This document shows, piece after piece, positions 1 through 12,401 of a stretch of 12,401 nt of DNA. The DNA comes from Archangium sp. (GTDB lineage: Bacteria; Myxococcota; Myxococcia; Myxococcales; Myxococcaceae), in the NCBI GenBank assembly GCA_031367385.1, contig JANLPS010000216.1:1-12401 (forward strand). The letters are read 5' to 3'. A program made the translations under genes and the position numbers. Positions within the stretch are counted from its first letter, which is position 1. Each line of letters begins with the position of its first letter. The notes below the pieces were generated by a model, which made no database searches, was not told the origin of the DNA, and saw only the letters and a list, made by a program, of their open reading frames with translations.

Positions 1-842
1 ATCACCGCCATGCCGCTGAGCATTCGCGCGGTGAGCGGCTCGTTGAGCAGCGCCACTCCCAGCAGCACTGACACCAGCGGGTTGACCACGCCGAAGCTCC
101 CGGCGCGCGCGGCCGGCCAATCGCGAACGACCATCGCATAAGCCACGAAGCCGCCCACCGAGGCCACGGTGCTCAACACCACCATCGCCGAGAGTGAGGT
201 GACCGTGACCTGCGCGTGAACGAACCCAACGCCGCTCAGCAGCGCAAGGCTCGCCGCCGCCGCCGAGCCGGCCGCCATCTGTACGCAGATTTGCGCGAAC
301 AGCCCCACCGGCCGCAACGACTGCGCTCGCTTCTGCACCAGGCTCCCGCCCGCGAAGAAGAAGGTCGCCACCAGCAACGCGGCAATGCCCAATGCATCGG
401 CATGAACCCCCTCGCGATCGGGCCAAAGCAGGAGCGCGACCCCCAACACGCCTCCGGCCACGCCCCACCAGGTGCGCCCGGGAGTTCGAGGGGCCGCCGG
501 GTCCCACCAGCCGAGGCTGCCGAGGGCTGCGAGCCACACCGACCCCAGCGAGTGCACGACGCCGGTGATGCCCGAAGCGACGGTGCGCTGCGCGAAGGCA
601 GTCAAAGCGTTGCTGCCGCTCATCAACAGCACGCCCACCAATGCGAACCGGGCCAGCTGCCACCCGCGGGGAAACACGTCGCCTCGAAGCCGCGCCATCG
701 CCAGGCAAATCATCGAAGCGACGACGCACCGAATCGCCACCAACCCGAAGGGCGTGAACGAACCGAGTGCGAGCCGAATGAAGAGGTAGCTCGAGCCCCA
801 CGCGGCCACGACGGTGAAAAACGCGAACCAGGTACGACGCAC
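1..842 (-). CDS. EamA/DMT-family (drug/metabolite) transporter, 3' end runs off the window
   Basis: Manual minus-strand translation from GTG at 842 (in-frame TAG just upstream at 854-852): VRRTWFAFFTVVAAWGSSYLFIRLALGSFTPFGLVAIR...AFAQRTVASGITGVV...GFVAYAMVVRDWPAARAGSFGVVNPLVSVLLGVALLNEPLT. Multiple hydrophobic helices with typical EamA motifs (WGSSY, NP...LG..LL.E). Absent from the ORF track, probably because it has no stop inside the window. Confidence 0.9.
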   Translation of the reverse strand, partial: MRRTWFAFFTVVAAWGSSYLFIRLALGSFTPFGLVAIRCVVASMICLAMARLRGDVFPRGWQLARFALVGVLLMSGSNALTAFAQRTVASGITGVVHSLGSVWLAALGSLGWWDPAAPRTPGRTWWGVAGGVLGVALLLWPDREGVHADALGIAALLVATFFFAGGSLVQKRAQSLRPVGLFAQICVQMAAGSAAAASLALLSGVGFVHAQVTVTSLSAMVVLSTVASVGGFVAYAMVVRDWPAARAGSFGVVNPLVSVLLGVALLNEPLTARMLSGMAV

Positions 843-862
843 ACGGCGGGGCTACCACACCC

Positions 863-885
863 CCGTTCGTCCTGAGCGAAGTCGA
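863..885. repeat. Intact copy of a short REP-like intergenic repeat (CCGTTCGTCCTGAGCGAAGTCGA)
   Basis: 23/23 identical to the sequence made by joining 7724-7738 to 9369-9376. It lies in a 50-bp intergenic gap, 7 bp past the stop of the 893..2563 gene. Confidence 0.9.
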
Positions 886-892
886 GAAACCC

Positions 893-2563
893 CTACCGCC
901 CGGTCACATTCAACGCGCCGCCCGTCAGAGAAAACACCCGCCCCTGCCGGTCGATCGCCACCGGCGTGTACGCAGCAGCCCAGGTCGCGTGCAGCACCCG
1001 GGAGTCACGCAGCGAGCCATCGGGCTTGATCGCGTAGAGCGAGCCATCTTCATTGTTCGCGTACGCCACGCCCTTCGAATCGATCGCGACAGAATTCACG
1101 CACCACTCGAACCCATTCTGATTTTTCTCCGACGTGCTCTTGTTGTGAAACCCGCTCTCGACGGTGAGCTCGGGTGAAAGCCTCGTGATCGCAAAGGGCC
1201 CGTTGCCGCTCGAGTCGCGCAGCCCGTAGTGGTTGTCTTTGAGCACGATGGAGTACGTGCCGTCATGACTCACCACCGCCGGAGTCACGTCCCACCCGAA
1301 GTCGTACGTGCCGAGCACTTCACCGCTCGAGCCGAAGTGAAAGAGGTGGCCCCGCGCCTCATTGTAAAGCGTCTCAGCGCCATAGAGCACCGTGCCATCG
1401 GGCAACACCACCGGGCTCGAGGTCGCATCGTCATCAGCCGCACCCGCCGGCAACTGGTTTGTCCACGGGTCGACGCCCTTGGTCGAGCCGATGCAGCAGT
1501 GGCCTCGAGTCGGTTTCCCACCGTCAGGAGCGGGGCATTGGGCATCATCGGGCACCCGTTCACCGCACCCGTCGGCCAGCTGGCCGCGAAGCGACGTGGC
1601 CCACTTCACCTTGAGGTCTGGCGTCAACGCGACGACCCACGCATACAGCGGCGAGTCATCGGTTCGGCTGACGGTGAAGATCGTGCCGTCGGGCCCAATC
1701 GCCGGAGCCACGTTGAAAGGAGCTCGCTGTCGCCCGCACGAAGTGGTGGGCGTGGGCCGAACACCTCCGTCGGCGTACAGCGCGGGGATGGGCCCAGTGT
1801 AGAAATGCACGCACAAGTCGTCGGCTCCGGGCGCTTGCGCAACCATGGAGTCGTACGGCACCGAGCTCACCTCGCCCGACCCGCTCACACGCACGAGGTG
1901 GGCGGTCGGAGCGCTCGAGTCGTAGACCAAGACGTTGAAAAAGACCGAGCCCGTCGAATCGATGGTCAGGGGGCCGGTGACGAACCGTTCGGCGCGCTCG
2001 TCTCCGGGCAGCGATGGCGTGATCTTCGCCAACATCGTGCCGGAGCGCCGATCGACTTTGAAGATCGAGCCATTGCTCCCGGGCACATAGAGAAAATCGC
2101 CGAACACCGCCGGGTGAAAAAGGGCCTCCCACTTCGTCAAGAACAGGGGCACCGGCTTCCAGTCGCTCTCGAAGCGCCAGGCTTTCGCGAGCGTGCCATT
2201 CGACCAGACCAGGTGCGTCTCACCCCACGTCACCTCAGCCCAGGCACCGAACCCGCAGTCACCTTGCGTCGTGTCGTCGCATTCGGGCTGCGTGCCGATC
2301 TTCTCCAGCATGTAGATGTCGTCGCCGACCAGCAGCGGCGATTGGTAGTGCACCGGCAAGTACCCCAATTGCCGCGCGACCTGCCCGGCAAAGGGGTCTG
2401 CGGTGAAAGAACCCAATTCACGGTTGAGTGGTTGCCCCTCGACACAGCCCTGCTGACTGGTGTGGCTCGAGTCGCGCCCCGATTGCGACCAGTCGCAGAG
2501 GGGGTTGGAGGCTGTCGTGCACGCCGCGAGAAACACCGTCATTGCGACAGGCGAGGTCTTCAC
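893..2563 (-). CDS. Putative lipoprotein with beta-propeller-like (PQQ/BamB-like) repeats, function unknown
   Basis: 556-aa ORF with N-terminal lipobox VFLAAC and recurring blade-like motifs (PLLVGDDIYM, PAVFGDFLYV, PAIGPDGTIFT, SSPVVLPDGTVLYG, VAIDSKGVAYA..DGSLYAIKPDG, PVAIDRQGRVFS). Several Cys clusters. Start uncertain (GTG 2563). Confidence 0.75.
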   Translation of the reverse strand: MKTSPVAMTVFLAACTTASNPLCDWSQSGRDSSHTSQQGCVEGQPLNRELGSFTADPFAGQVARQLGYLPVHYQSPLLVGDDIYMLEKIGTQPECDDTTQGDCGFGAWAEVTWGETHLVWSNGTLAKAWRFESDWKPVPLFLTKWEALFHPAVFGDFLYVPGSNGSIFKVDRRSGTMLAKITPSLPGDERAERFVTGPLTIDSTGSVFFNVLVYDSSAPTAHLVRVSGSGEVSSVPYDSMVAQAPGADDLCVHFYTGPIPALYADGGVRPTPTTSCGRQRAPFNVAPAIGPDGTIFTVSRTDDSPLYAWVVALTPDLKVKWATSLRGQLADGCGERVPDDAQCPAPDGGKPTRGHCCIGSTKGVDPWTNQLPAGAADDDATSSPVVLPDGTVLYGAETLYNEARGHLFHFGSSGEVLGTYDFGWDVTPAVVSHDGTYSIVLKDNHYGLRDSSGNGPFAITRLSPELTVESGFHNKSTSEKNQNGFEWCVNSVAIDSKGVAYANNEDGSLYAIKPDGSLRDSRVLHATWAAAYTPVAIDRQGRVFSLTGGALNVTGR

Positions 2564-2607
2564 TCCAGACAGATCGCGCCAAACGGCATCGCATATCGAA
2601 GAAAGTT

Positions 2608-4152
2608 TCAGATCACCGGCGGCCGACGCAGCTGCGTGCCCTGCTCGTAGGCATACCCGAGCCGGAGCAGCGTGCCTTCGCTCCAGGGCCCGGCGAAGAA
2701 CAGCAACCCCACCGGCAGGCCCTGCACCTCACCCATCGGCACCGTCAGTGACGGGTACCCCGCCACCGCAGCGATCGAGTACGACGACGCCCCGCCCACG
2801 TCTCCGTAAACCGGGTCAATCAGCCACGCGGGGTCCATCGTCGGAGCGATGATCGCGTCGAGCCGGTGCTTCTTCATCACCGCATCGATGCCCTTGCCCC
2901 GCGACAGCGTGCGGCAGGTCTCCAGCGCCTGCTTGTAGGCCTGACCGCTCAGCGGCCCCTTCGCCTGGGCCTGCTCGAAGAGCTCTTGACCGAACTGCGG
3001 CAGCTCGCGCTCAGCGTTCTTCGCATTGAAGGCGATGACGTCGGCCAGCGTCTTCACTGCCGCCCCGGGCCGTCGTGACGCCAGGTACGAGGCCATGCCC
3101 GCCTTCAGCTCGGTCAGCAGCACCTCGACCTCAGGCTTGTTCAGCGCCTCGACCGGCAGCTCGATCGGGTCGACCAGCACCGCTCCCAGCCGCTTCAAGT
3201 CGGCCCGCGCCGCATCGAGCAGCCGCACGACTCCAGGCATCGCGCTCATCAGCTTCACCGCGATACCGATGCGCGCACCCTTGAGCCCGTCGCGATCGAG
3301 AAACCGGGCGTAGTCTTTCTCGGCCTTGCGGCTCGCCACGCGCGTCGCCGCGTCTTCGGCGTCGTCACCCACCATCGCACCCAACAGCAGCGCGGCATCT
3401 TCGACCGTTCGAGTCATCGGGCCCGGCGTGTCTTGGCTGGCGGAGATGGGAATGATGCCGCTGCGGCTCAGCAACCCCACCGTCGGCTTGAGCCCCACCA
3501 AGCCCTGCGCCGAGGCCGGAGCCACGATCGACCCATCGGTCTCGGTGCCCACGGCCGCCGCGCACAGATCAGCCGCCACCGCGATGCCAGACCCCGAGCT
3601 CGAACCCAACGGGCTGCGCTCGAGCGCATAGGGGTTGCGACCCTGCCCGCCTCGCGCGCTCCAACCCGAGGTCGAACGGGTCGACCGAATGTTCGCCCAC
3701 TCCGACAAGTTGCTCTTGGCCAGCACCACCGCGCCCGCCGCTCGCAGCGCCGCCACGACGAACGCGTCTCTGGGCGCCTTCGACCCGAGCAGCGCCAGCG
3801 AGCCCGCCGTGGTCTCCATCTGATCGCCAGTGTCGAGGTTGTCTTTCACCACCACGGGGATGCCGTGCATCGGGCCCCGCACTTTCTTCTCTGCCCGCTC
3901 GCGATCGAGCCCATCGGCGATGCTCAACGCCTCGGGGTTCACCTCGAGAATCGCGTTTAGCTTCGGGTTCAACGCGGTGATTCGCGACAAGTACGCTTCG
4001 CACAACGCCCGAGAGGTCGTCTTGCCGCTCGCCATCGCCTCGCCCAGCGCCCGCAGGGTCGCGTTCTTGAACCCGAGCTCGGCCGACCACCCCACGCTCG
4101 GTATCAACGCCGCGGCCACTGACCACTGCAGCACCGAGCGCCGCGCGATCAT
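2608..4152 (-). CDS. Amidase-signature family enzyme with predicted Tat signal peptide
   Basis: Motifs HGIPVVVKDN (catalytic Lys), GSSSGS (cis-Ser region) and GTETDGS (nucleophile Ser), plus GLKPTVG and QDTPGPM. Start moved from 4188 to ATG 4152, which overlaps the upstream stop (ATGA) and gives MIARRSVLQWSVAAALIPSVGWSA. Confidence 0.92.
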   Translation of the reverse strand: MIARRSVLQWSVAAALIPSVGWSAELGFKNATLRALGEAMASGKTTSRALCEAYLSRITALNPKLNAILEVNPEALSIADGLDRERAEKKVRGPMHGIPVVVKDNLDTGDQMETTAGSLALLGSKAPRDAFVVAALRAAGAVVLAKSNLSEWANIRSTRSTSGWSARGGQGRNPYALERSPLGSSSGSGIAVAADLCAAAVGTETDGSIVAPASAQGLVGLKPTVGLLSRSGIIPISASQDTPGPMTRTVEDAALLLGAMVGDDAEDAATRVASRKAEKDYARFLDRDGLKGARIGIAVKLMSAMPGVVRLLDAARADLKRLGAVLVDPIELPVEALNKPEVEVLLTELKAGMASYLASRRPGAAVKTLADVIAFNAKNAERELPQFGQELFEQAQAKGPLSGQAYKQALETCRTLSRGKGIDAVMKKHRLDAIIAPTMDPAWLIDPVYGDVGGASSYSIAAVAGYPSLTVPMGEVQGLPVGLLFFAGPWSEGTLLRLGYAYEQGTQLRRPPVI

Positions 4153-5003
4153 CGCTTGACCACGCAGTACCCGCTCTTCTGATCGCACACGGTGTTGGCG
4201 AAGCAGGTGAACCCGGGGTTGTCACAGCGCGGTATGCAGATGCCGCTGCCGAATGACGCGGGGCTGGCCTCGCAGTTGTACCCGGGCCGACAGGTCGACT
4301 GGCCCTGCCTCGGCGCCCGGCAGCTCGCAAGGCACAGGTTGGAGCCCCCATCGGCCCCGCCGGTGTTCACGCACTGCGAGGCCTCGGGGCACGAGTTGGG
4401 GCCCTTGCACGCCGCCGTGCAGTACCCGCCCGGCCACCCGGTCGACATCATCAAGACCGACTCGGGTATGCAGAGCCCGTTGTTCGGAGGCTGGCACTGC
4501 CCGTCGAACAGGCATGGCGACCCGATGCCACCGTCGAGCGGGGGCTTCATGTCGGGCACGCACCCGGCTGGGCTGCAGACCTCGCCCGAGCCACACGCCG
4601 CGCACACCTGCCCCTTGGCGCCACAGACGAAGTTCGTCTGCGCTTGGGCGTCGAGGCAGAAGCTGCCCACGCAACAGCCATTGCAGGCGCCGGGGCCGCA
4701 CACCATCGGGCCGCCGCCACCGCCAGCGCCACCGCCAGCGCCCCCGCCGGTCGGCTTACCGCCGCCCCCTCCCCCAGACCCGCCGCCAGAACCCCCTCCC
4801 GGGCCTCCCCCTTTGCCTCCCGCGATGCCGCCGCCGGTACCCCCGCCGATTCCTCCCCCACCACCTGTGGCGCCGCCGCCGCCCGAGCCGCCGTCACGGA
4901 TACCGCCGCCGCCCTCGAACCCGCCGTCAGACAGCCGCTCTTCAACGGCTTGAAAACAACTGGTGACGGCGATCGCGGCGATGAGCAGGGCAAGGCGCTT
5001 CAT
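4149..5003 (-). CDS. Gly-rich/Cys-rich lipoprotein, function unknown
   Basis: MKRLALLIAAIAVTSC lipoprotein signal, GGAG 5 nt upstream of the ATG, a long poly-Gly linker, then Cys-rich modules (CNGCC, CAAC, WPGGYCTAAC, CRPGYNC). Confidence 0.82.
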   Translation of the reverse strand: MKRLALLIAAIAVTSCFQAVEERLSDGGFEGGGGIRDGGSGGGGATGGGGGIGGGTGGGIAGGKGGGPGGGSGGGSGGGGGGKPTGGGAGGGAGGGGGPMVCGPGACNGCCVGSFCLDAQAQTNFVCGAKGQVCAACGSGEVCSPAGCVPDMKPPLDGGIGSPCLFDGQCQPPNNGLCIPESVLMMSTGWPGGYCTAACKGPNSCPEASQCVNTGGADGGSNLCLASCRAPRQGQSTCRPGYNCEASPASFGSGICIPRCDNPGFTCFANTVCDQKSGYCVVKR

Positions 5004-5035
5004 GCAGACTCCAGGGGCGTCAAGAAAACGCGCGC

Positions 5036-5095
5036 AGCATACACAGCCCGTGGCCGAAACAGGGGTAAAGCCCCGTTTTTTCTCGCACTTACAAT
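5036..5095. promoter_or_regulatory. Candidate divergent promoter region with central inverted repeat
   Basis: AT-richer gap between divergent genes. -10-like TATGCT on the minus strand (5041-5036) and TACAAT on the plus strand (5090-5095) flank AAAC-A-GGGG-TAAAG-CCCC-GTTT (5057-5078). No convincing -35 boxes. Confidence 0.35.
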
Positions 5096-5132
5096 GTAGG
5101 CAACTTCATCGCGCAGCGGTCGACAACCTCGC

Positions 5133-5525
5133 ATGTCCAAAATCTCCGACACCCCCTCGGCCCGCACCTTCACCAAAGCATTGATGAAAGAGTTCGCTCC
5201 CGAAGCCCGTGAAGCGGCCGGCGACGACGCGATTCTCACCCGCGCAGAGGCGAAGACCATGATTGGCGTCGGAGGCTCGACCGCCCTGGTTGACCTCGCC
5301 GTCAGCTTCTTCGACCGCAAGGGCTGCGACTCGGCCCCCCTGAGCGAAGTGCTCAACGACGTCGACATGTTCGTTCAGCGCCGCGTGGCCAAAGAGGCCG
5401 TCAGCATCGCTGGCAGCACCACCGACAAGATTCTGTCGGCGGCCGATGCCCAACGTCTGCCCAAAGAAATCAAGGGCGCGTATGACTACCTGAAGAGCCT
5501 GCCGGGCACGCCTTCAGCCGACTGA
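5133..5525 (+). CDS. Hypothetical protein (130 aa) with two degenerate EF-hand-like repeats
   Basis: ORF with GC-rich third positions filling the gap before fusA. Internal repeat AAGDDAILTRAEAKTM / IAGSTTDKILSAADAQRL. Confidence 0.7.
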   Translation: MSKISDTPSARTFTKALMKEFAPEAREAAGDDAILTRAEAKTMIGVGGSTALVDLAVSFFDRKGCDSAPLSEVLNDVDMFVQRRVAKEAVSIAGSTTDKILSAADAQRLPKEIKGAYDYLKSLPGTPSAD

Positions 5526-5587
5526 TTGCGCACCCTTCGCCATAGCGCTTGTCTTTGGCCGCGCAGTTCAGTACTCGCGGCGGCGCT

Positions 5588-7723
5588 ATGGCTAACATTC
5601 CTCTCGACCGCATTCGCAACATCGGCATCTCTGCCCACATCGATTCGGGCAAGACCACTCTGACCGAACGCATTCTCTTCTACACGGGTCGCATTCACGC
5701 GATTCACGAGGTGCGCGGCAAAGACGAAGTCGGCGCCACGATGGACTCGATGGACCTCGAGCGCGAGAAGGGCATCACCATTCAGTCTGCCGCCACCTAC
5801 TGTGTGTGGCCGGGCTCGAAGAAGCAGTTCGAAGACTTCAACATCAACATCATCGACACCCCTGGGCACGTCGACTTCACCATCGAGGTCGAGCGGGCCT
5901 TGCGCGTGCTCGACGGCGCCATCTTGGTGCTCGACTCAGGCAAGGGCGTTCAGTCGCAGTCGATCACGGTCGACAAGCAGATGAAGCGCTACAGCGTGCC
6001 CCGCATCGCCTACGTCAACAAGATGGACAACCCGGGCGCGAACTACGACCGCGTCGCCGAGATGCTCAAAGAGAAGCTCGGCCACCGGCCGGTCAAGCTC
6101 CAGGTGCCGATTGGCGCCGAAGAGAAGTTCGAGGGCGTGATCGACGCCATCACCGGCAAGGCCTACTTCTTCGACGGCGAGAACGGCGAGAACATTCGCG
6201 AAGAGGCGATACCCGCTGACTACGTCGAGAAGACCAAGGCCGCTCGCATCGAGCTCATCGCCCGTGTCGCCGACCACGACGACATGTTGGCCGAGAAGTT
6301 CATCAACGAAGAGCCGGTGAGCGACGACGAGCTGCGCGCCGCCATTCGCCGCGCGACCCTGGCCCTCAAAGTGACCCCGGTCATGTGTGGCTCGGCCTAC
6401 CGCAACAAGGGCGTTCAGCTCTTGCTCGACGGCGTGGTGCACTACCTGCCCAACCCGATGCAGGTCACCAACCAGGCCCACGACCAGAACAAGGGCGAAG
6501 AGAAGGTCGTTCTCGACTCTGACCCGAAGAAGCCTTTCGTCGGCCTCGCGTTCAAGCTGCTGCAAGACAAGTACGGCCAGCTGACCTTCTTCCGCATCTA
6601 CCAGGGCACGGTTGCGACCGGCGACACCATCGTCAACACGAGCAACCAGTCGCGCAAGGTTCGCGTGTCGCGCATGTTCCGCATGCACTCCGACAAGCGC
6701 GAAGAAATCACCTCGGCGCAGGCCGGTGACATCGTCGCGATGACCGGCGTCGAGGCCTCGTCGGGCGAGACCTTCACCGACGGCAAGGTCAACTACACCT
6801 TGACGTCGATGTTCATCCCCGCGGCCGTGATCTCGCTGTCGGTGGCACCCAAAGACCGCGTGAACGAGATCAACTTCTCGAAGGCATTGAACCGCTTCAC
6901 CAAAGAAGACCCCACCTTCCGCGTGCGCCAAGACGAAGAGTCGGCGCAGACCATCATCAGCGGCATGGGCGAGCTCCACCTCGAGATTTACATGGAGCGC
7001 ATGAAGCGCGAGTACAACTGCGAGGTCGTCTCGGGCAAGCCTCAGGTCGCCTACCGCGAGACCATCACCCAGCGCGGTGAGTTCGCCTACACCCACAAGA
7101 AGCAGACCGGCGGCTCGGGCCAGTTCGCCCGCGTCTGCGGCTACCTCGAGCCCCTGCCGGTCGACTCGGTCGAGGCGTACGAGTTCGTCGACGACATCGT
7201 GGGCGGCTCGATTCCCCGCGAGTTCATCCCCGCGTGCGACAAGGGCTTCCGTGAGGCGGTCAAGAAGGGCGCGCTGATCGGCTTCCCCGTCGTGGGCGTT
7301 CGCTGCCTCATCAACGACGGCCAGTCACACGACGTCGACTCGTCTGAGCAGGCGTTCAAGACCGCCGCCATCATGGGCTTTCGTGAAGGGTACGCGGCTG
7401 CCAAGCCCACCATTCTCGAGCCGATCATGAAGGTCGAAGTCGAAGCGCCGATCGAGTTTCAGGGCTCGGTCGTCGGCCAGGTCAACCAGCGCCGCGGCGT
7501 CATTCTCGAGACCACCTCGGATGAAGGCAACGTGGTCGTGTTGGCCGAAGTGCCCTTGAACATGATGTTCGGGTACTCGACCGACCTGCGCTCGGCGACC
7601 CAGGGCAAGGGCAACTTCACGATGGAGTTCGCCAAGTACATGGCGGTGCCCCGCGGAGAGCAGGAAGAAATGGTCAAGAAGCACCGCGAGAAGATGGCGC
7701 TCGAGCAGGCTGCCCGAAAATAA
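5588..7723 (+). CDS. fusA: Elongation factor G (spdEFG1/mtEFG1-like subtype), outside the str operon
   Basis: [15 protein letters not shown] (G1), [15 protein letters not shown] (G3), NKMD (G4), [42 protein letters not shown]. Start taken as ATG 5588 ([11 protein letters not shown], 711 aa) rather than 5549. Confidence 0.98.
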
Positions 7724-7738
7724 CCGTTCGTCCTGAGC
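7724..7738. repeat. Left half of the REP-like repeat disrupted by IS110 (CCGTTCGTCCT-GAGC)
   Basis: Begins at the first base after the fusA TAA. Identical to 863-877. Confidence 0.9.
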
Positions 7739-7840
7739 AGGGGGACCGGCTTGGCGCCGGTTATTTCCGGTGAAGGAACAGATTTTCTGCGGACCGAGTA
7801 GACCGACGCGCGCGTGAGAGCAGCCGAGACCGCCGTCGCA

Positions 7841-7991
7841 ATGGTGCAGAGTTCGATGCCCGATCCTGAGCCTGGTTCTGGAGGCTGTGACTATTTCATT
7901 GGTGAAGGCGGTGAGCGGATTGGGTCCGCTCACCGCTTATCCCGTTTAGGAGACTGCTTAACTTCGTCCCCTCTGGGCTTTCACGCACCAT
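7841..7991 (+). ncRNA. Candidate IS110 bridge RNA core (target-binding loop, central hairpin, donor-binding loop)
   Basis: TCCTGAGC at 7864-7871 equals target-left plus core (7731-7738). TTAGGAG at 7946-7952 equals donor-left plus core (9361-9367). 12-bp perfect stem 7908-7919/7925-7936. Closing helix ATGGTGC 7841-7847 / GCACCAT 7985-7991. Transcript ends are unknown. Confidence 0.75.
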
Positions 7992-8017
7992 CCAAAGTGC
8001 GAAACGAGAGCTAGCGA

Positions 8018-9364
8018 ATGATGAATGAAAAGTCGAAGAAAACCAGGGTAGGCCTGGCGAGTTTGAATCCAAAGGCGGCAGGAATCGACCTTGGGTCCAA
8101 GACGCATTGGGTTGCGATTCCACCGGGCAGCGCAGACGAGACGGTCCGTTCGTTTGATTGCTTCACGACCGACCTCGAGAAGATGGCGAGTTGGCTTCGC
8201 GAGCACGGAATCACTACCGTCGCGATGGAGTCGACCGGCGTGTACTGGATTCCGGTTTTCGAAATGTTGGCGACTCGCGGCTTCGACGTGCAGCTTGTCA
8301 GCACGAAACACCTCAAGGGCGTGCCGGGCAGAAAGACCGACGTGCTCGACTGCCAGTGGATTCAACATCTGCACGAATGCGGCTTGCTGCGTGGCTCGTT
8401 TCGACCGGAAGACGCCATTTGTGTCGTGCGTGGCTATGTCCGTCATCGAGACACGCTGACGGAAGAGGCATCGAAGTACCTTCTGCGCATGCAGAAGTCG
8501 CTCGACCAGATGAACATCCATCTGCACAAGGTGCTCAGCGACCTCACTGGTAAGACAGGCATGGCCATCCTCGACGCGATTCTTGCGGGTGAGCGCGACG
8601 CAATGAAGTTGGCAGAGCTTCGCGACTACAGATGTCGCACACCCGAAAGCATCATCATCAAGGCTTTGTCGGGCAACTTCAGAGAAGAGCATCTGTTTTG
8701 CCTGCGGCAAAACCTCGACGCGTACCGTTTCGTGCAAGCGCAAATCGACGTCTGCAACTCAGAGATTCTCGTGCGGATGAAAGCCTTTCAGAACAAAGCG
8801 GGCGAGCTCACTCCGCCACCGCCGAAGAATAAGCGAGACAATGGCGAGGTGCGGCTCGCACTCTTTCGCGCCGCCGGCGCCGATTTGTCGCTCATCCCTG
8901 GGCTCGGCTCGAAGAATTTGCAGACGCTCTTCGCTGAAGTCGGCTTCGACCTTCAAAAATTTCCGAGCGAAAAGGCCTTCGCGGCCTGGGCTTCGCTCGC
9001 ACCCAAAAACAACATCACCGGTGGGAAGCAACGCCGAGGTCCGCGCACGACTTCTTCGACCAGTCGTGTCGCTCAAGCCTTTCGCATAGCCGCCCAAACA
9101 CTCGCCAATAGCCGCTCTGCCCTCGGCGCCTTCTATCGACGCATGCGTGGCCGCAAAGGCCCCACCTTCGCCAATGCAGTCACCGCTCACAAAATCGCGA
9201 AGCTCTTCTATCGAATGATGAAGCACGGCGACCAGTACAAGGACCCAGGCGTCGACTTCTACGAGCAAAGGTACAAGGCACAGCGCAAAACCTCAGCGCT
9301 CAAGACACTCGCAAGCCTCGGTTTTCACGCCACCCTGCGGGAGATTCCGAGCACTGTTCCTTAG
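8018..9364 (+). CDS. IS110-family transposase/recombinase (RuvC-like DEDD domain plus C-terminal Tnp domain)
   Basis: GID24LG, AME71STGVYW and KTD108VLD111 form an intact DEDD tetrad. The C-terminal domain has IPGLG...FPSEKAFAAWASLAP...ITGGK...AHKIAKLFYRMM. GAGAG at 8006-8010 is a possible RBS. No frameshifts or internal stops. Confidence 0.97.
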   Translation: MMNEKSKKTRVGLASLNPKAAGIDLGSKTHWVAIPPGSADETVRSFDCFTTDLEKMASWLREHGITTVAMESTGVYWIPVFEMLATRGFDVQLVSTKHLKGVPGRKTDVLDCQWIQHLHECGLLRGSFRPEDAICVVRGYVRHRDTLTEEASKYLLRMQKSLDQMNIHLHKVLSDLTGKTGMAILDAILAGERDAMKLAELRDYRCRTPESIIIKALSGNFREEHLFCLRQNLDAYRFVQAQIDVCNSEILVRMKAFQNKAGELTPPPPKNKRDNGEVRLALFRAAGADLSLIPGLGSKNLQTLFAEVGFDLQKFPSEKAFAAWASLAPKNNITGGKQRRGPRTTSSTSRVAQAFRIAAQTLANSRSALGAFYRRMRGRKGPTFANAVTAHKIAKLFYRMMKHGDQYKDPGVDFYEQRYKAQRKTSALKTLASLGFHATLREIPSTVP

Positions 9365-9381
9365 GAGCGAAGTCGAAGGAC
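9365..9381. repeat. Right half of the disrupted REP-like repeat (GAGC-GAAGTCGAAGGAC)
   Basis: 9365-9376 is identical to 874-885. AGGAC (9377-9381) is the reverse complement of GTCCT (7730-7734) and closes the palindrome of the empty site. Confidence 0.9.
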
Positions 9382-9390
9382 CCGCTCCCC

Positions 9391-9427
9391 AACCCTCTCT
9401 CCTTCACTGGGGAGGGGGTTTTCTTTT
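9391..9427 (+). terminator. Probable intrinsic terminator (originally for fusA)
   Basis: AACCCTCTCTCC-TTCACT-GGGGAGGGGGTT forms a 12-bp stem (2 G:U pairs) followed by TTCTTTT. Confidence 0.75.
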
Positions 9428-9475
9428 GAAGAATCAATGCAGCACTTTCGGGCCGGCCCTCTCATCAAGGCACCT

Positions 9476-11374
9476 ATGCGATTTCAGCTGATTGTGACCT
9501 TTGCGATGCTGCTGGCAGCGGGCTGCTTTCAAGGAGCGACCGAGTTCAAGTGCGACCCGGTGACCGGGCAAGACTGCGACGGCACCCGCGATGGAGGCAA
9601 GACCGGGTCGCCTGACGGCGCGGTGATGGGTGACGCAGGAGCGCTGGCGGGCGACGCCGGCACCTCGGGAGGCGACGCCGGCACCTCGGGAGGCGACGCA
9701 GGCACTGTGGAGTGCGTCGACAAGTACGACTGCCCCTTCAAGGCCGACAGCCTCATCACGTGCATCGAAAACCGGTGCGTGTACACGCACGACGACGCGG
9801 GCGCCCCTCCGTCGCACCTGAACGATGGCGGCGCTGTCACCCGCCGCGATGCCGGCAGCGTGCAGCCCAACCCCCAGGCCGAGCTGGCGGTCGACCGCCT
9901 CGAGGTGACCTTCGGCCGCGAGTTCGGCAGCGCCACCTGGCTGGGCACCGCACCCCAGGAGACCCTGCTGCTCACCAACATCGGGCTCACCGCCCTGACC
10001 ATCACCTCGGCGACGGTTCAAGGCGCCGACGCCGCGGCCTTCACCCTGAGCCGGCCCACGCTGACCCCCTCTCTGGCGCTGTATGAGCAGACCTTCATTC
10101 GGGTCATTTTCACGCCCACGGCGGGGCGCTCGTACGCCGCGACGCTCACCATCGCCTCAGACGGAGTCAACCCATCGATCACCGTGCCGCTGACCGGCCG
10201 TGGCATCGCACCGGCGTCTCCCGCGAGCCACGGCTTGTACGACAACCCCGAGTGCCTGGGGTCTGACCGCTGCTTCACGCCCGTCGAGACCGGTGGAGGC
10301 TGCGGCAGCAACTCGGCCGTCTGGGTCGGGTACCTCGAAGATCGCTCCCTGGCCTACCGCGACGATGCCGACGGCGACGGCGCGGCCGATGACGTCGACA
10401 ACTGCCCGTACGCGAGCAACCGAGATCAACTCGACGCCGACGGTGATGGCGTCGGCAACAGCTGCGACAACTGCGCGGCGGCGAGCAACATTCTTCAAGC
10501 TGACCTCGATGGCGATGGCGCGGGCGACCTCTGCGACGCCGACCTCGATGGTGACGGCATCGCCAACGCGGTCGACAACTGCCCTTCTCTGCCGAACCCG
10601 AGCCAGGCCGACCTCGACAACGACGCCGCGGGAAACCGCTGCGACGCCGACGCCGATGGCGATGGGTTTCCAAACGTCTCCGACGTCTGCCCGCTTCTCG
10701 CTCACACGCCGAACGAGGTCGTGCTCGACAACAACGGCATGGTGCACCCCCAGTGCAACCCCGACGTTGACGGCGACGGCGTCGGAGATGCCACTGACAA
10801 TTGCCCCGACGTGGCAAACACGAATCAGCTCGACACCGACGGAGATGTGCTCGGCGACGTCTGCGACCGCGACATCGACGGCGATGGCGTTCTTAACCTG
10901 GCCGACAACTGCTCGAAGGTGGCCAACCGAGACCAGCGTGACGATGACGGCGATGGCATCGGCGACGCCTGCGACGCGAAGTATTGCTTCGTCGTCGACC
11001 CCTCGAACCGCGCAGACTGCCTCGACCCCCAGGGGCCCTTTCGAGTGCACAGCGGCGGCAGCTTTTCGCTGCGCACCGGCGAGTCGGTTCGGTTGCCCTT
11101 CTTCGCCAATCGCAATGGCGCGGGCATCACGTTCATCTGGACGATCAGCAAGCGCCCGGCTGCCAGCCTCGCCGCGGTCGACCAGCCCACTGGCTCGGTG
11201 GTGCTGAGCAGGCACTTCACCTACGCGTACCCAGACCGGCAGGTGCCGTTCTTCACGCCCGACGTCGCCGGCGACTACACACTGCAGCTGCAATCAACGC
11301 TCACCATTGCCGACCGGGTGTACCCTGATCAGAAGCAATCGGTCTCAGCGATGATCATCCACGCCACGCCCTGA
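9476..11374 (+). CDS. Lipoprotein with Ig-like (ASH/choice-of-anchor D-like) domain and thrombospondin type 3 Ca-binding repeats, MtsC-like C-terminal part
   Basis: Start taken as ATG 9476 (AAGG upstream, MRFQLIVTFAMLLAAGC lipobox). LLLTNIG..LTIT...F...VIFTP....Y.ATLTI.SD....VPLTGRG is Ig-like. Many DxDGDGxGDxCDNCP/NxDQxD repeats. The MtsC resemblance is from memory, not from a search. Confidence 0.88.
   Translation: MRFQLIVTFAMLLAAGCFQGATEFKCDPVTGQDCDGTRDGGKTGSPDGAVMGDAGALAGDAGTSGGDAGTSGGDAGTVECVDKYDCPFKADSLITCIENRCVYTHDDAGAPPSHLNDGGAVTRRDAGSVQPNPQAELAVDRLEVTFGREFGSATWLGTAPQETLLLTNIGLTALTITSATVQGADAAAFTLSRPTLTPSLALYEQTFIRVIFTPTAGRSYAATLTIASDGVNPSITVPLTGRGIAPASPASHGLYDNPECLGSDRCFTPVETGGGCGSNSAVWVGYLEDRSLAYRDDADGDGAADDVDNCPYASNRDQLDADGDGVGNSCDNCAAASNILQADLDGDGAGDLCDADLDGDGIANAVDNCPSLPNPSQADLDNDAAGNRCDADADGDGFPNVSDVCPLLAHTPNEVVLDNNGMVHPQCNPDVDGDGVGDATDNCPDVANTNQLDTDGDVLGDVCDRDIDGDGVLNLADNCSKVANRDQRDDDGDGIGDACDAKYCFVVDPSNRADCLDPQGPFRVHSGGSFSLRTGESVRLPFFANRNGAGITFIWTISKRPAASLAAVDQPTGSVVLSRHFTYAYPDRQVPFFTPDVAGDYTLQLQSTLTIADRVYPDQKQSVSAMIIHATP
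9629..9705 (+). repeat. In-frame 21-bp tandem repeat (GDAGTSG), about 3.7 units
   Basis: GGCGACGCCGGCACCTCGGGA is exact at 9650-9670 and 9671-9691, degenerate at 9629-9649 and partial at 9692-9705. Confidence 0.9.
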
Positions 11375-11381
11375 CTTCGAG

Positions 11382-12401
11382 TCACTTCGCGACGGTGCGG
11401 CTCCACATCGTCAGCACCGCGCGCACCACGGCCCCCGGAGGCGTTTCGGCGACCGGTGGCAGCTCGACCTTGATGCCGTTGCCGACCAGCTTGTTGAACG
11501 GGTTGGCCGGGTCGGCCGACTTGAGTGGCACGGTGGGGTCTGAGGGTCGAAACCCGAGGCGCAGCGCCTGCTCCTGCATCGGGCGGCTCCTCAAGAAGGC
11601 GACCCATTTTCGGGCGGCGGCCTTCTGCTCTGGCGTCGCGGCCGAGAAGAGCGCGACCGGGTGGTCGCTCCACACCGTCAAGTCTGGGTAGTACACATGC
11701 AGGTCGCCCCACCGGCCCTGGGCGTTCTCGACCTGGGCGATGGCGAGGTTCTCGTACACCACGGCGATGTCGTATTTGCTCGGCCCGTACAGCACCATCT
11801 CGGTCATGAAGGTGCCGGTCGAGGTCTCGAACTTGGTGACCCCCTTCTCGGTCTCTTTGATGAAGGTCTGGTAGTCGGCGTTGAGCACGTCGCCGACCTC
11901 GAGGCCTCCGCGCTTGCCGTAGAACTCGAGCGTCATCAGCAGCAGGGCTTGCAAGCCCGAGTTCGAGCGCGTTGGGTCGGTGTGGCCGAGCTTGACGAAG
12001 CCCCACTCCTTGTTGCCGCCCACCGCGGGCCAGCCTTGCGGCGAGGCGACCGCTTTGTGAATCGCCTTCCAATTCACCACGCCGCCACCTGACTTCTGCA
12101 GCGCCTGGGCGCGGTCAGCCCACGCCACCCACACCAGCGGAGTGAGCACCAGGGGCCTCGGCGCATCATCACCGGCCTCCCACAGCGAGCCATTGCCACG
12201 GGCGCGGTAATCGGAGTCGGCCAGGGCCAACACCGTCGAGTCGGCAGGGCTCCAGAGCGTGGGCTTGACCTTACCGTCAGCGACGGCCGCTGCTGAGTCG
12301 AGTGACCCTTGGGCCTGCAGGGTCAGCTTGATGCCTGGCTCTGCCTGACGAAAGGCCGCCGCGCAGAAGTCGATCCACTCCTTCTTCTCGGTCGAGTACA
12401 A
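11382..12401 (-). CDS. Extracellular solute-binding-type protein (of the kind often found with VWA-domain genes), 5' end outside the window
   Basis: Open frame to the window edge: YSTEKKEW, GSLDS, PTLWSPADS, PLVLTPLV, KLGHTDPTRSNSGL, AVVYENLAI, YYP..TVWSDHP, FLRS...Q..AL..GFRP. The ORF track's first Met is probably an artefact of the window edge. Confidence 0.8.
   Translation of the reverse strand: MYSTEKKEWIDFCAAAFRQAEPGIKLTLQAQGSLDSAAAVADGKVKPTLWSPADSTVLALADSDYRARGNGSLWEAGDDAPRPLVLTPLVWVAWADRAQALQKSGGGVVNWKAIHKAVASPQGWPAVGGNKEWGFVKLGHTDPTRSNSGLQALLLMTLEFYGKRGGLEVGDVLNADYQTFIKETEKGVTKFETSTGTFMTEMVLYGPSKYDIAVVYENLAIAQVENAQGRWGDLHVYYPDLTVWSDHPVALFSAATPEQKAAARKWVAFLRSRPMQEQALRLGFRPSDPTVPLKSADPANPFNKLVGNGIKVELPPVAETPPGAVVRAVLTMWSRTVAK

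Follow-up and report, generated by a model that had tools for sequence, protein, structure and literature searches.

A 12,401-nt stretch of Archangium sp. DNA (GenBank assembly GCA_031367385.1, contig JANLPS010000216.1, positions 1 to 12,401 of the forward strand; hereafter the window) carries an insertion sequence (IS) of the IS110 family within a repeat that resembles repetitive extragenic palindromic (REP) sequences, directly behind a fusA-like gene. The best overall explanation, to which a probability of roughly 0.6 is given from the sequence evidence, is that this is an ISPpu9-like IS110 element with an AG core whose donor would be a single strand folded back on itself. Central to this reading is the 5' donor guide of the predicted bridge RNA, which matches an internal site in the left end of the element rather than the bases beside the core. 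The use of a REP-like repeat as a landing pad is ordinary on its own, while the displaced, same-strand donor guide appears to be new. In window positions, the donor side of the system comprises:

7736-7737 (+): left AG core, CT on the other strand, placed from homologue junctions
7738-7744 (+): linker of the IS left end, 7 nt, the predicted unpaired side of the donor bubble
7745-7761 (no strand): left-end DNA hairpin with a 6-bp stem and a 5-nt loop, the inner stem of the proposed fold-back donor
7762-7767 (+): internal site identical to the 5' donor guide, which can pair only with the minus strand here
7775-7781 (+): left copy of the subterminal inverted repeat, reverse complement of 9354-9360
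7818-7984 (+): predicted bridge RNA with two loop modules, from alignment and consensus fold
7892-7897 (+): 5' donor guide, matching 7762-7767 rather than bases beside the core
7946-7952 (+): 3' donor guide, in the same sense as the IS right end and core (9361-9367)
9354-9360 (+): right copy of the subterminal inverted repeat
9361-9367 (+): right donor half-site, with the AG core at 9366-9367 and including the transposase stop codon

The guides were compared across 168 loci (79 + 80 + 8 homologous loci and the query). Enough upstream DNA was available for 151 of these, which formed 100 clusters; 79 elements were parsed, 71 with the left junction and 59 with both. The homologues are kin and statistically not independent. 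The predicted RNA has two internal loops with guides for target and donor, in the order also known from IS621: 5' guide, inner stem, 3' guide and handshake base. Its consensus fold consists of two modules in which all guide slots are unpaired and 17 of 24 pairs show compensatory change, and the guides fall in the same columns in a separate alignment of 36 parsed elements. Folding z-scores were -3.24 for the donor module, 0.51 for the target module and an unremarkable -1.05 for the whole left end. A search of Rfam gave no match for the predicted RNA, which is presumably expressed.

The donor guides flanking the core on opposite strands, as expected for an IS621-type donor, are absent here: at the canonical left-end position, the 5' donor guide shows a mean of 4.3 mismatches in 6 bases, and this position was rejected. 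Instead, the guide matches its own left end in the same sense at +22 to +38, exactly in 33 of 71 elements and within one mismatch in 57, compared with 0.3 % and 5.2 % for swapped-guide controls. With one element per distinct guide (38), the mean mismatch was 0.92 versus 2.44 after permutation (0/5000), and the exact matches comprise 17 different 6-mers scattered over many branches of a quick protein tree. Since guide and internal site have the same sense, they cannot pair with each other, which leaves the minus DNA strand as the partner. This is also the strand with which the 3' donor guide pairs, at the right end and core, as covariation indicates. It is very probable from these patterns that both donor guides pair with the same DNA strand. 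Other candidates were also discarded, namely pairing of the 5' donor guide in the reverse-complement sense within the window (mean 2.4/6 mismatches), an inversion between core and internal site that would restore a canonical donor (no conserved second core by eye), and the CCCCT at about 7968 as a donor guide, which lies within the conserved closing stem. An RNA-RNA partner for the 5' donor guide was not seen in the alignment.

The surroundings of the internal site are conserved in layout. A hairpin stem of at least 5 bp lies between core and internal site in 52 of 71 elements, compared with 15 % of shuffles. After 5-7 nt, a spacing found in 42 of 43 elements, the guide site is followed by the reverse complement of a motif located before the right-end half-site. 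These subterminal 5-mers form an exact inverted repeat in 56 of 59 elements and represent six motif types; the mean for the 7-mers is 6.34 versus 4.93 permuted (0/3000). The best left-end hairpin, when located without the guide, is centred on the fold-back axis to within 0-2.5 nt in 39 of 59 elements (17 % of shuffles), and its position moves with the axis between the subterminal repeats (rho 0.37, p 0.004). For the query, the minus strand of the circle junction is predicted to fold at -13.7 kcal/mol, with 0 of 1000 base shuffles as low, into an outer stem, a bubble and an inner stem. The core side of this bubble has 7 + 2 + 5 bases, in agreement with the site numbering described together with the handshake base for IS621 (PMC13626964, PMC11208158; statements on published systems refer throughout to the accessible portions of the cited sources).

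The left-end module also occurs apart from the complete element. In genome G047, 300 matches (1 in the control) mark a 78-bp non-autonomous unit, for example at L163:1040-1200 and in L216-L235. This unit consists of the IS left-end module, a spacer and the left arm of the repeat, and is found singly or in tandem at the AG of the repeat. Hairpin, guide site and subterminal repeat are kept, and 192 of 227 hairpin-plus-repeat matches have the exact guide site. Compared by eye with the resident IS, the units show a compensatory stem change, a guide site identical at 7/7 positions and an unguided gap identical at 2/6. One transposase copy was found in this genome. Tandem units that keep one donor half have been reported in general terms (10.64898/2026.08.14.744561). 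Extra or tandem left-end modules also lie beside the element in L064, L137, L157 and L053, with a second left end directly after the right end in L064.

In the proposed mechanism, the bridge RNA of the AG-core element would direct insertion into the REP-like repeat behind fusA. The minus strand of the excised circle would fold on itself, with the subterminal inverted repeats as the outer stem and the left-end hairpin as the inner stem, and the resulting bubble of 14 x 13 nt would show both guide sites in the geometry of a melted IS621 donor, as a pre-melted pseudo-duplex. A single-stranded circle would then be a ready donor for which neither second-strand synthesis nor a junction promoter is needed. 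One strand would be joined to the target, and host replication or repair would finish the insertion. Excision of only one strand, as a single-stranded circle or its precursor, has been reported for both IS621 and CazIS110-1 (10.64898/2026.08.31.748434, 10.1101/2025.10.25.684509). By the IS621 convention, the excised strand reads CT at the core, so here it would be the strand paired by the guides. The fold-back single strand as donor is modestly favoured. A slightly better than even chance is also given to the broader proposal that a widespread AG-core clade (ISPpu9 and homologues from several phyla) uses a one-strand fold-back donor with two same-strand sites about 25-30 nt apart, that its single-stranded circle inserts directly, and that a 40-nt left-end module drives families of hundreds of copies.

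Several results weigh against this reading. Two or more guide-site mismatches were found in 14 of 71 elements. Among 11 held-out plasmid and phage loci, 7 could be parsed, of which 2 have one mismatch and 5 have two, with 4 of these 5 belonging to an AA-core subclade; of the 4 unparsed loci, 2 match by eye and 2 distant ones are without such a layout. The correlation between linker and post-hairpin length, a crude measure, was not significant (rho 0.14, p 0.37, n=43). The covariation of the subterminal repeats could reflect symmetric recognition by a protein, and the right-end finder demanded GT at the subterminal motif. Minimum-energy folds of many homologue junctions pair bases of the bubble, and some are without the outer stem. 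The unit in G047 ends in the target arm and its junction forms no outer stem; conservation within these units is hardly higher at the guide site (0.905) than in the gap (0.883; n=27). CazIS110-1 favours double-stranded donors about 20-fold at one junction (10.1101/2025.10.25.684509). Finally, an ISPpu9 mutant in the inverted repeat of its left-end box (A box) still gave minicircles by end-point PCR (PMC12288879), which counts against a strict need for the inverted repeat in excision.

The same RNA-DNA pairing could alternatively take place on a double-stranded circle or on the chromosome, where the hairpin would be extruded locally as a transient cruciform-like structure, mainly for excision, and opened by the ribonucleoprotein together with supercoiling, transcription or a replication fork. 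All of the covariation would be explained equally well, double-stranded IS110 circles have been reported in vivo (10.64898/2026.08.31.748434), and the tandem amplification of the left-end module alone in G047 points to a role at the chromosomal left junction. Nevertheless, extrusion would have to overcome a large energy gap, as the 60-bp duplex is calculated at -87.3 kcal/mol versus -13.7 and -15.1 kcal/mol for the two folded strands, and the outer stem requires the right and left ends on one joined strand. Extrusion is considered rather unlikely, though it is the strongest of the competing explanations.

Less probable still is that the internal site is a regulatory parking site, at which the donor loop would repress the element's own promoter or recruit the enzyme, with recombination needing just the 3' donor guide, the core and the handshake base. 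Such half-match recombination has been reported for IS621 (10.64898/2026.08.31.748434), the native promoter of ISPpu9 lies in its left end (PMC12288879, PMC8450116), and circularisation of the ISPpu9 inverted-repeat mutant (PMC12288879) fits as well. A parking site leaves unexplained, however, the central position of the hairpin on the axis that runs between both subterminal repeats, the distance from guide site to repeat that is kept in 42 of 43 elements and the retention of the module in 78-bp units that have no promoter. An ordinary IS621-like element in a REP, with an internal match arising by chance or from a functionless ancestral duplication, is very improbable. REP targeting alone is well known, the internal matches span just 6-10 nt and related elements are not independent, but the 17 different exact 6-mers, the swapped controls and the lack of pairing at the canonical position largely refute this explanation.

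The target side of the system comprises:

7724-7735 (+): left arm of the target repeat
7833-7839 (+): 5' target guide, complementary to the core G and the right arm on the plus strand, from a permutation test
7863-7870 (+): 3' target guide, in the same sense as the left arm and core
7871 (+): handshake-like base, equal to the first base of the IS left end
9368-9381 (+): right arm of the target repeat

By eye, the 5' target guide of the query pairs with 5 of 7 bases from the core G, and its 3' target guide matches 7 of 8 bases of the left arm and core. Across the homologues, the 5' target guide pairs in the canonical way with 2.08 of 4 bases on the right side of the target versus 1.11 permuted (0/5000, n=59), and the exact 7-mer of the 3' target guide is found upstream in 53 of 79 elements versus 1.7 % with swapped guides. 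In 69 of 71 cases (56 C/C, 13 T/T), the base after the 3' target guide agrees with the one that opens the element; for its counterpart in the donor loop, agreement with the first target base is limited to 20 of 59. The variation between AG and AA cores co-varies in both 3' guides. Reading of the DNA sites takes place on the non-gene strand, so that the AG is the CT core of IS621 flipped, as in ISPpu9; the gene strand reads AG, not the CT of IS621-type elements. In the AA-core subclade (L164, L165, L166, L170, L199, L201, L202, L210, L215), the target guide spells an A-rich site. Several of its members presumably sit in IS3-like transposase genes, apparently at a frameshift motif, and an IS3 neighbour is annotated in L202.

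The element itself and its remaining surroundings are:

863-890 (+): second, partly decayed copy of the REP-like repeat, whose right arm has 3 mismatches to the rebuilt site
5549-7723 (+): fusA-like gene (elongation factor G); the split repeat starts at the base after its stop codon
8018-9364 (+): IS110 transposase, 448 aa, with D24/E71/D108/D111 invariant and Thr334 at the position of the IS621 catalytic serine
9391-9428 (+): hairpin resembling an intrinsic terminator, originally just downstream of fusA

The original prediction had rebuilt the insertion site by joining 7724-7738 to 9369-9376, and the reported identity to 863-885 holds at 23 of 23 bases. The use of 863-885 as an empty-site control did not stand, since this is a separate, partly decayed copy of the repeat. 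The element ends had been placed within a shared GAGC; a shared core is indeed present, and the comparison of homologue junctions narrows the ambiguity to the AG at 7736-7737 and 9366-9367, giving an element of 1,630 bp from core to core (7738-9367). Multi-copy homologue groups give the same ends without use of the guides. Recombination through a short shared core without true target duplication, also proposed earlier, agrees with the homologue junctions, and terminal inverted repeats are absent, as is usual in this family. The layout is that of the IS110 group, with a long left end (280 bp) holding the RNA and a right end reaching 3 bp past the stop codon. The subterminal repeat (7 bp exact, left copy 37 bp from the core) falls within the 7-17 bp of the IS1111 group, whereas the long RNA-bearing right end of that group is not present. 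The GC content of the element is 57.7 % compared with 65.2 % for the genome, and a sigma-70 promoter scan returned 0 sites.

The assignment of the gene to IS110 was confirmed by the domains PF01548 (E 8.7e-19 in the family test) and C-terminal PF02371, and by NF033542 (246 bits, cut-off 140). D24, E71, D108 and D111 are invariant in 88 of 88 aligned sequences. Thr334 aligns to S241 of IS621; of the 168 rows, 99 matched the motif, and 21 of these have threonine at this position, a five-copy group among them. The enzyme is presumed to be active. A homologue with 44 % identity is common on plasmids of Citrobacter, Enterobacter and Klebsiella, and another was found in Wolbachia phage WO.

The proposal that the repeat family serves as a multi-copy landing pad is supported, as the repeat has at least 55 copies and both target guides spell it. 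It also conforms to established IS110 biology, in which insertion into REPs and targeting by a bridge RNA are known for IS621, ISPpu9 and ISPpu10 (PMC11208160, PMC12288879, 10.64898/2026.03.19.712850). The genome (7.97 Mb) contains 5 exact copies of the 23-mer, counting the one in the window, and 27 matches within 3 mismatches. The rebuilt 28-mer (7724-7738 and 9369-9381) is found exactly in 4 other contigs and has 31 matches within 6 mismatches, counting the window copy and the right IS junction. A hidden Markov model (HMM) of the repeat gave 55 matches at E<=0.01 and 77 at E<=0.1, and no match at either cut-off once the genome had been locally shuffled. For many copies, a stop codon is no more than tens of bases away. 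The distribution among relatives is patchy: with up to one mismatch allowed, the repeat was matched in 13 of 150 family genomes, a few of which carry 21-75 copies, and in the congener G046 it was not matched.

A mobiliser of the REP-associated tyrosine transposase (RAYT) type was not detected, as PF01797 had no match in this 98 %-complete genome, while the control was detected in 6 of 14 genomes; the family therefore differs from RAYT-associated (GTAG) REPs, no Y1/RAYT gene being flanked by the repeat. Like the CGTC-tagged REP families (PMC3733652), it consists of short intergenic imperfect palindromes near gene ends without a RAYT gene. Families 1-4 of this type have 8-9-bp stems and 4-5-nt loops after a CGTC-type tag (PMC3733652), whereas the repeat described here has a 5-bp outer stem and a larger, variable middle, adjoins small GIY-YIG genes and falls outside their definition. 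These stand-alone GIY-YIG genes (G000:C321:30703-31027, L193; G000:C388 at about 19220-19435, L194) have one repeat copy at the 3' end in C321 and a sister repeat on both sides in C388. They are candidate mobilisers of the repeats; a literature search on this repeat or a GIY-YIG mobiliser found nothing. The left arm of the repeat (7724-7730) resembles the subterminal motif of the IS (9354-9360) at the same 7-nt distance to the core. This likeness is seen in the query and partly in L163, is not general, and may help the enzyme in target recognition.

Because the assembly holds a single full IS copy, the position within the repeat was assessed through scars and homologues. The empty repeats C498 (13293-13327) and C92 (7750-7776) have the right-end heptamer of the IS in place of the end of the left arm, and these are probable scars of imprecise excision; the heptamer occurs 31 times genome-wide. 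The repeats C413 (12859), C492 (2285-2320) and C536 (18300-18332) have a 5-mer resembling the left end after the core, which are possibly scars or else variants of the repeat. The nearest homologue, L163 (57 % amino acid identity, sister of the query in a quick tree with an SH-aLRT support of 99), occupies the corresponding AG in a longer repeat whose arms are similar; L168 uses a different AG, also within a similar repeat. Both placements were judged by eye, as is the kinship of these targets to the repeat, since the REP profile did not detect them at a useful E-value. The rebuilt targets of 15 out of 54 homologues fold better than z -2.

A comparison of the fusA 3' region among related strains, suggested in the original prediction, revealed a polymorphic locus. 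Public contigs were compared for 4 of 9 listed runs from 2 studies. Contigs of run X1, which may be the source run, span both IS junctions and those of X4 the left junction. In X2, a contig links 7725 to 9391 through 24 other letters, an allele without the IS and without an intact repeat. Run X5 has almost no cover of the element except for short conserved stretches common to other organisms; one contig begins exactly at 9365 with 8 unmatched letters, and the depth table implies that cover ends near 7738, so that X5 is probably an empty-repeat allele. G046 has neither IS nor repeat after fusA and carries a similar hairpin there. Given the alleles without the IS, the repeat or both, the repeat seems to have arrived behind fusA recently, followed by the IS. 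No circle junction was found among the joints of the four public runs, which are assembled contigs only and thus uninformative either way.

Elsewhere in the window, 9437-11374 encodes a probable secreted protein or lipoprotein with thrombospondin type 3 repeats and an Ig-like domain, and 4149-5003 a Gly/Cys-rich protein without a Pfam match. The reading frames at 893-2563 (-; 556 aa) and 5133-5525 (+; 130 aa) had no Pfam match either.

It is currently disputed whether the circles of IS110 elements consist of one strand or two and in which of these forms they insert (PMC13626964, 10.64898/2026.08.31.748434, 10.1101/2025.10.25.684509). The clade described here, whose donor recognition appears to depart from the IS621 model, offers sequence evidence for a built-in solution, a donor working on one strand. 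It also provides exact bases for mutation and rescue, among others for ISPpu9, which already serves as a laboratory system. If the reading is true, a short folded oligonucleotide or a single-stranded circle could be the donor in programmable insertion, and the whole clade would be mis-assigned by pipelines that predict guides from the bases beside the core alone. It would also account for the need of ISPpu9 for its 43-bp left box and for its missing junction promoter. A description of an AG-core bridge RNA or a one-strand donor was not found in the portions of open-access papers and preprints that were searched.

If the fold-back donor holds, there is a likeness to the 'peel-and-paste' elements of the IS200/IS605 family, in which a strand-specific single-stranded circle is recognised via subterminal hairpins. 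These elements use an unrelated HUH tyrosine enzyme and DNA guides, and have no bridge RNA. Within IS110, ISPpu10 is a REP-targeting element in which a DNA stem-loop adds to the RNA pairing; this stem-loop lies in the target and the core is CT (10.64898/2026.03.19.712850), whereas the conserved hairpin described here lies in the donor end.

With IS621 and ISCro4 (PMC11208160, PMC11208158, PMC13626964), the element shares the DEDD RuvC and C-terminal Tnp domains, REP targets, a left-end RNA whose two loops carry 5' guide, 3' guide and handshake base, and the 7+2+5 site geometry. The transposase is longer (448 aa vs 326-341) and only distantly similar (E 4e-10). Site reading differs from IS621 in using the other strand with respect to the gene. 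Further differences are the long 3' guides (7-8 nt), a weak 5' target guide and a displaced 5' donor guide, which shares its DNA strand with the 3' guide. The subterminal repeat has an asymmetric arrangement and a length of 7-9 bp, compared with 2-3 bp in IS621.

The closest resemblance is to ISPpu9 of Pseudomonas putida KT2440, an IS110-group element that differs in repeat family and host and is likened here by its published box sequences only, by eye. Its accessible literature (PMC12288879, PMC8450116) contains no guide mapping, no remark on an inverted repeat between its A box and right-end B box and no test of circle strandedness. A search for ISPpu9 DNA gave 6 hits in viral contigs, none beside an IS110, and did not find it in plasmids. 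ISPpu9 forms no junction promoter, and deletion of either box abolished circles (PMC12288879). The AG core, the REP target and the A-box hairpin that mark the ISPpu9-like subgroup are all present in the query, and the two also have in common a long left and a short right end; ISPpu9 likewise mobilises non-autonomous derivatives (PMC12288879, PMC8450116). Further marks of this subgroup are a transposase close to that of ISPpu9 and an antisense RNA across the leader. The ISPpu9 ends are a 43-bp A box and a 16-bp B box (PMC12288879 Table S2). A common A' variant differs in the gap of the A box, and one rarer variant differs also in the linker and a stem base. By eye, the A box consists of the core, a 6-nt linker, a 6-bp hairpin, 7 bases ending in C and the 6-nt gap, and it ends with the reverse complement of the B-box motif, the same layout as in the Archangium element.
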